Shown in pieces: positions 59,396-61,848 of a DNA stretch of 64,000 bases (positions are counted from its first letter, which is position 1; every line of letters begins with the position of its first letter). The DNA is from a virus. Position numbers and translations under genes: made by a program. The stretch spans positions 33,473 to 97,472 of IMG/VR virus record IMGVR_UViG_3300044625_001067; one strand, 5' to 3'. The notes beneath the pieces were generated by a model. It did no database searches and had not been told where the DNA came from. It saw only the letters and a program-made list of their open reading frames with translations.

Positions 59396-60910
59396 CTAAG
59401 CTGCGGGGTTAAGAAGTCGAGTACGAATGTTAGGCAGTGAGTTTACATCCTCCCCGTAAACCACGCTGTTTAAGAACACGGTGCGAAGCTCGCCTCGCTG
59501 CTCTTGCTCACGAGTCTGCTGTTGATGAAGAACAAAGTTCTCCCCATCCTTTTCAACTCGCAGTAGACCCAACGCCGACTTTTTCGTGCCGCGATCCGTA
59601 ATGGGATCCTTCATGGTTTCGACGGCGAGACCGTTAATTTGCCCCCAGGTTGTTTTGTAAGCAATACCGAACGTGTCTCGTGTATGGTATTGGTAGGTGT
59701 AAGAACCGATACCAAACACAATGTTTTCGGACGCCCACCCAAGCTGCCTCATGTGCTCTAGGATGGCCCTGGCCCGTGGAAGAGTGATTGAGTCGCCGTA
59801 AATTAGGCCAACTCGAGGGTTCAGTACCTTGAAACCCTTCTCGTTTATCGTTCCTCCGAAGACCTCCCAGAGAAGCTCAAGCGAGCCTTTGTACTCTCGG
59901 CTACCTAGCTCAGCGTCAGCGTCACCGCAGATGATTTTCTCAGGGTTACCGCTGTCGGGACGGAAGACGACCTTAGCGATGCCCTGAGAATTCGGACAAC
60001 GATTTAAGATGTCTTCCTTAAGTGCGGGTGCAATAACAGTCAGTGCATCCCAGTAGTTCCAAGTGTCAAAAACTACACTGACCGGCCCAGTTGGGTATAC
60101 TTTTGTAATAATTCGACGAATTGTCTCTAATTCGTTTCTTTGACCGCCAAGGCAGGTCACACTGTGTTCCGTAGCGGGAATACTACCACCAATGAAATTG
60201 GACCCACAATCGTAGTAATCTTCCAAGTAGTCAATGGAAAGGATTGTATCCGTGCCCTTGAAAGAAAAAAGGTGTCCGATATTGTGTGCAGCGGCATCGT
60301 AAATGCCTCCGACTCCGCGAGCGGAGAAGTCGTGCCCCTGAAAGTCAACAAACTGCGGATTACTCCCTGTGATTTCAGCGTAGTGGTCGAGAAGACGGCG
60401 AAACTCGTAGGCGATGGTTGCCACGTTGATGGCCTTCCACAGCTCAGACGACTTGGCGGTTTCGACATAGTTGGTTAGCCACGGGGCCAGCCACTTGAAG
60501 TCATTGTGAGTGTTTTGCGCCGTCAAAAACGGCACTCCAATGTTAACACGGCTACCCTCGGGCAGTGCCTTCACATGTAGCGGCATGTAGCCCAGGTCGT
60601 GAAGCTCAGCAATGTGGTCAGTGCCGACAACACCTTCTCCGAGCGAGGAGTCCATTCGCCGCTTGTATTTGTCCAACACCTTGGCCTTGGGTTGCTGAAA
60701 AAAGGTCTCATTCCAAAGATCCCTCAGCATCCATTTCATTGTCCCCTGGATGTTGGCCACGACGATCTTGTGGTCGAAGTCAGCGGGCATGTTCGCCAGA
60801 CGGTCGGACCTTGCCGTCATGTTGGCGTAGATTACTTCGGTGCCTTCAGGGTTTTGCGAAGGGTGTCCTGTCTTGTAAAAGTCGGTTGCGTGGGGCGCAA
60901 AAATTTTCAT
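59396..60910 (-). CDS. nicotinamide phosphoribosyltransferase family protein (NAMPT/NadV, or NARP1 Namat-type nicotinamide ADP-ribose transferase)
   Basis: 504 aa ORF recognised as NAMPT-family from the translation. It is translationally coupled by a 4-nt overlap to the PRPP-synthetase-like gene. Confidence 0.75.
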   Translation of the reverse strand: MKIFAPHATDFYKTGHPSQNPEGTEVIYANMTARSDRLANMPADFDHKIVVANIQGTMKWMLRDLWNETFFQQPKAKVLDKYKRRMDSSLGEGVVGTDHIAELHDLGYMPLHVKALPEGSRVNIGVPFLTAQNTHNDFKWLAPWLTNYVETAKSSELWKAINVATIAYEFRRLLDHYAEITGSNPQFVDFQGHDFSARGVGGIYDAAAHNIGHLFSFKGTDTILSIDYLEDYYDCGSNFIGGSIPATEHSVTCLGGQRNELETIRRIITKVYPTGPVSVVFDTWNYWDALTVIAPALKEDILNRCPNSQGIAKVVFRPDSGNPEKIICGDADAELGSREYKGSLELLWEVFGGTINEKGFKVLNPRVGLIYGDSITLPRARAILEHMRQLGWASENIVFGIGSYTYQYHTRDTFGIAYKTTWGQINGLAVETMKDPITDRGTKKSALGLLRVEKDGENFVLHQQQTREQEQRGELRTVFLNSVVYGEDVNSLPNIRTRLLNPAA

Positions 60911-61848
60911 GGTTGGTTGCGTGGGGTGGGGTAGTTTTCGGTACGAAGGTAGGTCAAGTACGAGGGTAACTCTTGGTAAAAGGCTTTATACGGGAGCAAG
61001 TTCGCAACGAAAAAGTTGTCGATTAAGCTCCCAAACACCTTAAAACCCTTGGAGAAAATTCCGTGAGTTACATAGAGGTCAATTCGAGACGGGTCGAACT
61101 GACGTAGCACCTTGGCGAGTTCGATAAAGGTGCGACCGCCATCGCAGATGTCGTCCACAATCAGAAGGTTTTTGCCCTTGTAACTGACGTCTTCTGGAAC
61201 TTCCGTCCTTAGGATTTGCCCGTCTTCAGGGTTGCGAACTTTCGTAGCGTACACTACAGAGTGGAGCCCCAGTGTTTGTTGTACGAGGGTTGCTCTTTCG
61301 ACTGCACCTTTATCCGGAGCAATCACAATTGTCTCAGCACTAAACTCTTGCCCCCGGTCTTTGAACTTCTGGAGAAACAGTTGGGGTTGTAGGTTGTTGA
61401 ACTCGCAGCCGATTTCGGTTCGAAAGAGCTCATTTGCAACGTGGCTGTGCACGTCCCATGTGTACACCCGGTCGCACACTCCCTTAAGATAAGGGGCGAG
61501 AGCTTTTACAAAAGTTCTTAGCGAAAACGCTTCCCCTTCAGCGCACTGGCGGTCTTGGCGGCTATAAGGTAAGTACGGGATGTCCAATTGTAGACTTCGC
61601 AGCACAGGAAGGTCTTTGATGGCCGACAGAGTCAGAAGAAGTTCTGCGAAACTTTCTCCGCTGTGTATGTCTGCGTCTACGATAATGTCAGTCGAATTTG
61701 TTGGAGTGTCGTGCAACCGGACCTGCCTTTCACCGGCACTGAACGTAAAGGAGGTCTTTGAAATCTTGTACAGGTTTTGTCCGTCGCGATTCGAGTAAAC
61801 CTCAATCGGCTCTGTTTTCTGATACTCTTTAGTTTCGGTCACGTGCAT
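60907..61848 (-). CDS. ribose-phosphate pyrophosphokinase family protein (PRPP synthetase, or NARP1 Adps-type ADPR pyrophosphokinase)
   Basis: PRPP-binding loop NLLIVDDICDGGRT. 313 aa, typical of class I Prs. Element copy at 61870..61915 upstream. Confidence 0.7.
   Translation of the reverse strand: MHVTETKEYQKTEPIEVYSNRDGQNLYKISKTSFTFSAGERQVRLHDTPTNSTDIIVDADIHSGESFAELLLTLSAIKDLPVLRSLQLDIPYLPYSRQDRQCAEGEAFSLRTFVKALAPYLKGVCDRVYTWDVHSHVANELFRTEIGCEFNNLQPQLFLQKFKDRGQEFSAETIVIAPDKGAVERATLVQQTLGLHSVVYATKVRNPEDGQILRTEVPEDVSYKGKNLLIVDDICDGGRTFIELAKVLRQFDPSRIDLYVTHGIFSKGFKVFGSLIDNFFVANLLPYKAFYQELPSYLTYLRTENYPTPRNQP

Follow-up and report, generated by a model that had tools for sequence, protein, structure and literature searches.

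In NAD+ reconstitution pathway 1 (NARP1), a phage 'Prs' named Adps pyrophosphorylates ADP-ribose (ADPR), and a phage 'Nampt' named Namat joins the product, ADP-ribose pyrophosphate (ADPR-PP), to nicotinamide (Osterman et al., 2024; bioRxiv 10.1101/2024.02.11.579819). The quoted names are those of the classical salvage enzymes, phosphoribosyl pyrophosphate (PRPP) synthetase and nicotinamide phosphoribosyltransferase. A Namat gene neighbours 97% of Adps-clade genes, a separate Nampt clade travels with the nicotinamide mononucleotide (NMN) adenylyltransferase Nmnat to make up NARP2, and no phage combining NARP1 with NARP2 was found (Osterman et al., 2024). NARP1 was reported earlier in 859 phage genomes, or 4.3% of sequenced phages. 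The subject here is an overlapping pair of Prs-like and Nampt-like genes in a 64,000-nucleotide stretch of an uncultured large freshwater phage (positions 33,473 to 97,472 of IMG/VR virus record IMGVR_UViG_3300044625_001067; hereafter the window). With a probability of roughly 87%, the pair is a NARP1 operon.

Two structural papers of 2026 (PMC12774641 and PMC13586617) provide residue-level rules on what DISCRIMINATES NARP1 from Prs + Nampt. In Namat, for which the SPβL1 structures 9W5X/9W5W are available, a 'selectivity clamp' is formed by the SCH motif and the SCL stacking residue: SCH reads GS-X-Φ1-X-Φ2-X-Φ3-TRD, with aromatic X residues of which those at positions 3 and 7 stack on the adenine, and SCL is the β1-β2 loop, which contributes a stacking Arg, Lys or Tyr (Lan et al., 2026; PMC12774641). 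The Adps of phage ICP1 holds ADPR across the ancestral ADP and ribose-5-phosphate sites and contacts its adenine through F18', R87 and F92; the ATP donor is held by a remodelled PP loop (C215-S220, following D212-D213-I214), the catalytic lysine is K185, and the enzyme lacks the C-terminal α11-α12 module, the filament and regulatory module of PRPS (Liu et al., 2026; PMC13586617). Because these structures define signatures, the two chemistries can now be separated at the sequence level, and the opinion of the first-pass annotation of the window, that the chemistry cannot be told from sequence, has become too cautious.

Both genes lie on the minus strand, adps upstream of namat:

60907..61848, minus strand: adps, PRPS-like, 313 aa, predicted ADP-ribose diphosphokinase (ADPR-PP synthetase), assigned from open reading frame (ORF), profiles, tree and motif
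59396..60910, minus strand: namat, Nampt-like, 504 aa, predicted nicotinamide ADP-ribose transferase, assigned from ORF, scores against Protein Data Bank (PDB) structures, motif and tree
60907..60910, minus strand: ATGA overlap, the adps stop TGA running into the namat start ATG, read from the sequence caaccaaccATGAaaatt

The two ORFs, their lengths and strand, the 4-nt overlap, the loop VDDICDGGRT in the 313-aa translation, and the Prs-family and NAMPT-family assignments (PHROG, NCBIfam and Pfam matches for both) all stand as the first-pass annotation gave them. The same overlap (3001-3942 and 3939-5453) recurs in four more metagenomic contigs that encode an identical Adps protein. It is consistent with a single transcription unit, in which translational coupling is possible. 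NARP1, already the candidate reading at first pass, is supported over Prs + Nampt and over NARP2, because the adenine clamp, the Adps PP loop, the clades, the hidden Markov model (HMM) patterns and the gene linkage observed here all favour it.

The 504-aa protein matches PHROG 448 (7e-175), NF006629 (488 bits against a cut-off of 405) and Pfam NAPRTase (8.6e-33). Its top solved relative is SPβL1 Namat (9W5X/9W5W, 434 bits), with human Nampt at 192 and Xanthomonas (Xcc) Nampt at 157 bits; it shares 44-46% identity with SPβL1 Namat, compared with about 30% for KVP40-like Nampt, for which Vibrio phage R11Z served as proxy. The catalytic core is intact (F195, R198, D221, H249 within ATEHS, R317 and D319), as judged against F189, R192, D215, the catalytic His, R306 and D308 of SPβL1 Namat. 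Eighteen of the 20 NAD+-contact residues of the latter are identical and the other two conservatively replaced (A362S, F392Y), which makes 19 of 21 mapped residues identical once the catalytic His (H249) is counted. The clamp is complete as well. The SCL stacking residue R40 of SPβL1 aligns with R37, in 'TARSDR', and the SCH motif occupies residues 402-412 as GSYTYQYHTRD (G402-S-Y404-T-Y-Q-Y408-H-T410-R411-D412), with Tyr at all three X positions and T, Q and H as Φ1, Φ2 and Φ3. From the alignment, R37, Y404 and Y408 are predicted to adopt the adenine-stacking geometry.

The motif follows the clades. GS(Y/F)(T/S)YQxxTRD is found in all ten Adps-linked clade sequences compared, the window protein included, and GG(G/A)LLQxxxRD in all five Nmnat-type (NARP2) or stand-alone phage Nampts; human Nampt has GSGGGLLQKLTRD at the SCH position. 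A neighbour-joining (NJ) tree of 15 sequences (458 columns) separates the ten Namats from the five Nampts in 100% of 500 bootstraps and places the 504-aa protein with the Namats. From this we infer that the protein is a Namat that would prefer ADPR-PP over PRPP and make NAD+ directly. Another solved protein, named 'nicotinamide phosphoribosyltransferase' (9ke8/9keo), scores 361 bits to the 504-aa protein and has an intermediate SCH motif, GAQTYQRNTRD, in which Gln stands as the first aromatic and Arg as the third.

The 313-aa protein matches PHROG 619 'ribose-phosphate pyrophosphokinase' (8e-65, 219.8 bits) and Pfam Pribosyltran, Pribosyltran_N and Pribosyl_synth, and it fails all equivalog-level Prs models widely (e.g., 122 bits against a cut-off of 296). 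Its PP or donor loop, D232-D233-I-C-D-G-G-R-T-F241, is identical (DDICDGGRTF) in Bas60 and in the Felix-O1-like phage (E. coli typing phage 1, used as proxy for Bas63) and close to that of the verified ICP1 Adps (DDICDGAASF). The bacterial Prs loop is DDM(I/V)DT(A/G)GT(L/V/I) and the archaeal one DDIISTGGT; a Prs-type loop is present in 8/8 Prs references. On two public models, the scores fall as follows:

E. coli Prs: TIGR01251 423 bits, PHROG 619 193 bits
Prs of the record labelled Microcystis phage MaAM05: TIGR01251 409 bits, PHROG 619 175 bits
SPβL1 Adps (verified): TIGR01251 106 bits, PHROG 619 248 bits
ICP1 Adps (verified): TIGR01251 98 bits, PHROG 619 285 bits
Window 313-aa protein: TIGR01251 129 bits, PHROG 619 220 bits

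Two custom HMMs, one built from seven cultured-phage Adps, none close to the window protein, and one from eight Prs, give it 177.8 and 100.4 bits, respectively; in leave-one-out controls (Adps HMM/Prs HMM), verified Adps score 181/91 and 200/73 and Prs 115/452 and 96/452. The 313-aa protein thus scores like verified Adps on all four HMMs. An NJ tree of 30 sequences, whose Prs side includes two archaeal Prs fragments copied from PDB alignments, splits 22 Adps-like sequences from eight Prs in 96.6% of 500 bootstraps, with the window protein in the Adps clade. The phylogeny against verified enzymes that the first-pass annotation had called for therefore places neither protein with bona fide Prs or Nampt. 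The catalytic lysine K203 aligns with ICP1 K185 and SPβL1 K162, a feature common to Prs that does not discriminate. An AlphaFold2 (AF2) model (pLDDT 89) has the PRPS fold, with TM-scores of 0.63-0.70 to PRPS structures, the PDB copy searched being one without an Adps structure. The model contains no helix of four or more residues after residue 249, only a β-strand at 298-304 and a disordered tail, and 69 residues follow the PP-loop window, compared with 81-85 in canonical Prs; judged by the model, the α11-α12-type C-terminal module of PRPS is lost. Together, these features point to an Adps, which would pyrophosphorylate ADPR with ATP.

Classical salvage is a rival reading: a dedicated PRPP synthetase and a true Nampt would make NMN, which a host or phage Nmnat would then use, either in a KVP40/NARP2-like route or as a metabolic boost. 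A number of observations pull in this direction or weigh against NARP1. The labels in databases and the generic models are those of Prs and Nampt/NAPRT, and the 313-aa protein passes the generic NCBI Prs 'subfamily' model TIGR01251 (129 bits against a cut-off of 113). Its identity to archaeal Prs (27-28%) is on a par with that to the two verified Adps (24-27%), and F36, R97, H134, D179, K203, D232 and D233, ATP- and ribose-binding residues shared with Prs, are all present. The ICP1 adenine contact Phe92 is Cys102, and ICP1 Phe223 is Glu243. In the 504-aa protein, the Φ3 His is atypical of SCH, where Asn or Val is usual, and is common to 9 of 80 IMG/VR relatives. The closest characterised-type Namat relatives (59% identity) are bacterial NadV genes of prs-nadV-nrtR operons, which were first ascribed to PRPP-dependent Nampt salvage (PMC2330246), and Namat enzymes retain Nampt activity in vitro, making NMN from PRPP (PMC12774641; bioRxiv 10.1101/2024.02.11.579819). 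Both trees are Kimura-distance NJ trees of small samples, distance-based rather than maximum likelihood, with splits counted directly.

Pairwise identity was dropped as an Adps classifier, and since it is the same to Adps and to archaeal Prs, the assignment draws on tree, profiles, motif and gene neighbourhood. Position 92 of ICP1 is not a family rule, because most Adps-like sequences have Cys there and the verified SPβL1 Adps has Ser. The inspection of pocket residues suggested at first pass is mixed: the Namat clamp and the PP loop favour NARP1, whereas F92 is replaced, and F36 and R97, two of the ADPR-adenine contacts in ICP1, are kept but are kept in Prs too. Against classical salvage stand the failed equivalog models, the Adps-type PP loop, the grouping with verified Adps in tree and HMMs, and an adenine clamp that true Nampts lack. 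The verified SPβL1 Adps, which has the same database profile, gave no product in a Prs-type control assay (Osterman et al., 2024), and no recognisable Nmnat, Nudix, NadR or PnuC is among the 25 of 29 Pfam families listed for 95 window ORFs. The Prs + Nampt alternative offered at first pass, with neither the Prs loop nor Prs-level scores nor the Nampt motif behind it, is therefore highly improbable.

Under NARP1, adps and namat would be co-transcribed across their ATGA overlap. Adps would convert ADPR and ATP to ADPR-PP, with Lys203 as the catalytic lysine and the DDICDGGRTF loop holding the ATP donor. Namat would then use its Nampt-type catalytic core to exchange the diphosphate of ADPR-PP for nicotinamide, yielding NAD+ directly, while the clamp of Arg37, Tyr404 and Tyr408 would stack on the adenine of ADPR-PP and so favour it over PRPP. 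In this way, NAD+ could be rebuilt from what bacterial NAD+-destroying defences leave behind. The two enzyme activities, the preference for ADPR-PP and the anti-defence role are ascribed here by analogy with verified homologues.

Gene linkage in relatives agrees with the pairing. In 79 of 80 IMG/VR viral loci with an Adps relative, the 4-kb flanks fetched contain a Namat homologue, and the 80th locus ends at a contig edge; the strict SCH motif is found in an ORF at 71 of the 80, and at eight others the Namat homologue has a variant motif or is split. The median adps-namat gap is 35 nt where measured, and the Nampt-type motif occurs in 0/80 of these loci. The 79/80 linkage agrees with the published 97%. 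A count of 80/80 Adps-type PP loops was discarded as circular, IVDDICDG having been one of the search patterns. In three IMG/VR loci (L047, L070 and L105), the Namat appears as split tblastn matches, which could reflect an intron, an intein, an endonuclease insertion or a frameshift. In Vibrio phage ICP1 isolate 2019_Dha_G (locus L003, 2501..3958), Namat homology begins at 2501 and the annotated CDS at 2639, and the frame that starts at 2501 runs into a stop after 28 codons; the Namat of this isolate may be N-terminally truncated or frameshifted.

The phage-collection record with the top namat match (59% identity) is labelled Acinetobacter phage MD-2021a. It was rejected as a phage: L002 (CAKLQF020000015.1) and L009 (CAKLQF020000011.1) are bacterial chromosome contigs, because ABC transporter genes and an AraC regulator lie on the namat-match contig, and a canonical prsA_1 adjoins rplY on another contig of the assembly. 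These sequences were used as a bacterial reference instead. Here, prsA_2-nadV is followed by a Nudix and winged-helix protein, as in the prs-nadV-nrtR operons of Rodionov et al. (2008; PMC2330246), whose NrtR repressor is released by ADPR. The gene after nadV, annotated 'bifunctional NMN adenylyltransferase/ADP-ribose pyrophosphatase', encodes a 255-aa NrtR-like protein of Nudix and winged-helix domains.

The bacterial operons raise a rival of purpose rather than chemistry, namely that the pair serves general recycling of infection-derived ADPR, as in the ADPR-induced prs-nadV-nrtR operons, and not specifically counter-defence. Both window proteins fall beside the Acinetobacter prs2/nadV group in the NJ trees and not among cultured-phage sequences, the bacterial operons are derepressed by ADPR (PMC2330246), and bacterial NARP1 is enzymatically active (Lan et al., 2026). 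The subclade support is, however, weak (43% in the Adps tree), deletion of NARP1 sensitises phages specifically to NAD+-depleting systems, and ADPR-PP is seen only with such a system present (Osterman et al., 2024). Recycling in place of counter-defence is thus unlikely, and the two purposes are not mutually exclusive.

The elements on either side of the NARP1 candidate genes are:

61899..61871, minus strand: sigma-70-like hexamer pair TTTACC-17-TATAGT, 22 nt upstream of the adps ATG, 9/12 match
59297..59395, minus strand: namat-HNH intergenic spacer, with a hairpin GGGGG-TTTACA-CCCCC at 59384..59369 and a perfect TATAAT at 59358..59353
58706..59296, minus strand: HNH endonuclease gene, 196 aa, directly downstream of namat (PF01844 1.5e-14, PHROG 16726 3e-49)

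The promoter-like element noted at first pass exists as a hexamer pair upstream of adps and is a possible operon promoter without statistical support. It is given no weight, because the operon region holds four sigma-70-like sites and shuffled sequence 3.0 +/- 1.9. The HNH gene may have its own promoter, since the spacer holds the hairpin and the perfect TATAAT; this TATAAT is absent from the hexamer-scan output, and its -35/-10 spacing would be 15 nt. Among the ORFs flanking the operon, only the HNH protein (PF01844) and a 122-aa helix-turn-helix (HTH) protein (HTH_3) match Pfam; those of 88, 111, 120 and 157 aa do not.

The HNH ORF is real, and loci L004/L005 and L022-L025 share the order Adps-Namat-HNH (196 aa), which is kept in relatives whose Adps and Namat share 59% and 68% identity with those of the window. 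The HNH protein and its L004 counterpart share 91% identity. At the nucleotide level (window 58706..59395 against L004 8444..9135), the HNH cassette is 75-91% identical, namat 60-75% and the downstream sequence below 40%; the namat-HNH spacer reaches 75% and the adjoining namat 3' end 54%. This far better conservation than that of the flanking genes suggests a mobile endonuclease cassette, perhaps recently exchanged, with a fixed insertion site after namat. The designation as a homing endonuclease made at first pass agrees with the clear HNH domain and with the conservation. Homing is not proven: none of the close relatives checked lacked the insertion, and a co-conversion tract was not seen. 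HNH is a conserved third gene in this lineage, probably a mobile or homing element that takes no part in the chemistry.

A second rival concerns a gene 40 kb from the operon:

18970..19473, minus strand: 167-aa HxGH-class nucleotidyltransferase (GRFNIGHPGH ... SGSSTALR), Pfam CTP_transf_like, 22.2 bits against a cut-off of 21

In this dual route, NARP1 would be accompanied by the 167-aa protein acting as an NMN adenylyltransferase on NMN that Namat makes through its residual Nampt activity. HxGH and SxxSTxLR-type motifs place the 167-aa protein in a nucleotidyltransferase superfamily that includes NadM-type Nmnat, JGI labels some of its homologues NMN adenylyltransferase, and homologues occur on metagenomic contigs sized like those with Adps relatives (277, 280, 188 and 104 kb). 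A 31-sequence family profile matches NadM Nmnat structures weakly (17 bits, E=0.03-0.2), but its best PDB match is glycerol-3-phosphate cytidylyltransferase (28.5 bits, E=1e-5). No NCBIfam model, Nmnat included, is reached, and the AF2 model (pLDDT 95) does not discriminate, matching PPAT, a putative NaMNAT, NadM and GCT equally (TM-score 0.6-0.68). Pfam finds no Nudix domain in it. Directly downstream lie a CthPnkp-type polynucleotide kinase, a metallophosphoesterase and then a 5'-3' exonuclease, an RNA end-healing context by its gene content. With no Nudix, a cytidylyltransferase as best profile match and RNA end-healing neighbours, the protein cannot be called an Nmnat and is probably outside the NAD+ pathway; together with the absence of phages combining NARP1 and NARP2 reported by Osterman et al. 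(2024), this makes the dual route very unlikely. Its extension to a dual-input pathway, in which NARP1 and a stand-alone NMN adenylyltransferase would keep working even when aRES makes ADPR unusable, is no likelier.

The first-pass annotation had called this gene NMNAT/PPAT-like and proposed a NARP2-type route through it. The ORF and its marginal CTP_transf_like match are confirmed, the Nmnat assignment is not, and within the 64 kb covered the route is left without support, the Nampt-like protein lacking GGxLLQ as well. A 'split NadR-like' arrangement, with the nucleotidyltransferase and the adjoining P-loop kinase as a NARP3-like Nmnat and nicotinamide riboside kinase, was also ruled out, because the kinase best matches the C. 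thermocellum Pnkp kinase domain, PSTK and T4 Pnk and is followed by the metallophosphoesterase. The 167-aa family comprises at least 157 metagenomic proteins of about 170-200 aa, annotated inconsistently across sources as NMNAT, cytidyltransferase-like or hypothetical; R9, H14, H17, S120, S121 and R125 are invariant in it.

The genome is roughly 250 kb or more in size, and the window covers 64 kb of it. A member of the Adps 90%-identity cluster lies on a 277-kb metagenomic contig, and related contigs reach about 280 kb. The exact Adps sequence is indexed in 69 blocks of an assembly collection. There are 12 tRNA genes in the window, its ORFs are mostly small, with 98 of 132 on the minus strand, and its PHROG matches include RNA ligases, an exonuclease and a thymidylate kinase. 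Its origin is taken to be a phage because of the tRNA genes, the PHROG matches and IMG/VR viral contigs with Adps 94-100% identical to that of the window. The phage is novel at the DNA level: megablast of 25 kb against 50,697 phage records gave no match, and nucleotide searches returned only short 66-72% matches inside namat. Other features of the window are:

16601..19473 (minus strand), 38217..39296, 52198..53430 and 28662..30140: RNA-repair genes, a group including a DUF2828/DUF7788 protein
4207..11334 (plus strand) and 21501..22084 (minus strand): the 12 tRNA genes
62196..62564: HTH gene, 122 aa, Pfam HTH_3
62769..62791: perfect G9/C10 hairpin GGGGGGGGGTGAACCCCCCCCC, terminator-like on both strands, between the HTH gene and the 215-aa ORF
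62808..63455: 215-aa ORF with a signal-peptide-like N-terminus
63498..63743: 81-aa ORF with a prepilin-type N-methylation motif (FTLIELL)
47692..48393: pentapeptide-repeat protein

The RNA-repair set consists of Rnl2-like and Rnl1-like RNA ligases, the CthPnkp-type polynucleotide kinase, the metallophosphoesterase and the 5'-3' exonuclease; Thg1, cREC_REC and HAD_PNKP are further Pfam matches in the window to which no ORF was assigned. With the tRNA genes, the set looks like a toolkit against tRNA-cleaving defences. The DUF2828/DUF7788 protein, the only one searched, has its nearest cultured relatives in Synechococcus phages B3 and B23 (244 kb, 63% identity), so the host may be cyanobacterial; the 215-aa and 81-aa ORFs and the pentapeptide-repeat protein, taken with this match, hint at the same.

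The pathway is already known, and the window is a clear but ordinary further example of it. What it adds is a NARP1 operon, assigned with confidence, from a lineage of large freshwater phages not yet in culture, which suggests that pressure from NAD+-depleting defences acts on these phages too. With the 2026 rules (the clamp for Namat, the PP loop for Adps), annotators can tell NARP1 from Prs/Nampt salvage without biochemistry, and the rules worked here although the Adps is only about 25% identical to verified enzymes.

Among the named systems, NARP2 (Nampt and the bifunctional NadM-Nudix Nmnat, KVP40 type) shares with the window pair a homologous Nampt fold and the goal of restoring NAD+. By contrast, the window protein is about 30% identical to the KVP40-like, Rhizobium-phage and Synechococcus-phage Nampts, lacks GGxLLQ and falls outside their clade (100% bootstrap), and no NadM-Nudix gene was found among the families listed for the 95 window ORFs. 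NARP1-AP, with the Macro-domain ADPR-1''-phosphatase Adpp, and RyDEP-containing NARP1 have the same Adps + Namat core, but the third gene in the window locus is the HNH endonuclease. No Macro phosphatase (PF01661, PF14519, PF20016) or RyR domain (PF02026) was found by Pfam within about two genes of the operon, and Macro and RyR, like Nudix, NadR and PnuC, are not among the 25 of 29 families listed. The locus is read as plain NARP1, not as NARP1-AP, RyDEP-extended NARP1 or NARP3, because these accessory domains are unlisted in the Pfam scan; without Macro or RyR-domain families, the pathway is predicted to be ineffective against aRES-type defence.

The bacterial prs-nadV-nrtR operons (Acinetobacter ADP1, Shewanella; PMC2330246) are now regarded as bacterial NARP1 (Lan et al., 2026). 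Acinetobacter NadV, the closest named relative in the phage collection, is 59% identical to the window Namat and the adjoining Prs2 36% to the Adps; the pair has the SCH motif GSFTYNYLTRD and the PP loop DDICDGGATF. These operons are chromosomal, regulated by the ADPR-sensing NrtR, and made of non-overlapping genes, whereas the window pair is phage-borne and lacks an nrtR gene. The two-gene NARP1 operons of Bas63 (Felix-O1-like) and Bas60 (PaulScherrer) have a PP loop identical to that of the window and the SCH motifs GSYTYQYMTRD (Felix-O1-like) and GSYTYQFNTRD (Bas60). Their Adps and Namat are 27-31% and 42-43% identical to those of the window, and the Felix-O1-like and Bas60 Namats differ in carrying insertions of about 90 aa (593 and 577 aa in total) and Lys at the SCL position.

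ICP1 Adps (Liu et al., 2026) shares the PP-loop DDICDG, and its F18, R87, H121, D161, K185, D212, D213 and D216 correspond to window F36, R97, H134, D179, K203, D232, D233 and D236; of the two residues that form a lid over the ATP adenine, F221 corresponds to F241, and the window model likewise appears to lack the C-terminal α11-α12-type helix. The differences are the 26% identity, the replacement of F92 by Cys102 and of F223 by Glu243, GGRT in place of GAAS, and an N-terminus about 20 residues longer in the window protein. SPβL1 Adps is 24% identical and has a variant PP loop, DDLSSFGGTF as opposed to DDICDGGRTF; the SCL loop of the window Namat is 4-5 residues longer than that of SPβL1 Namat, and host and phage lineage differ. 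Even so, SPβL1 NARP1 and the window locus have in common the adps-then-namat order of overlapping or abutting genes, the Adps catalytic Lys, and a Namat with 44-46% identity, 18/20 NAD+ contacts and the whole adenine clamp.

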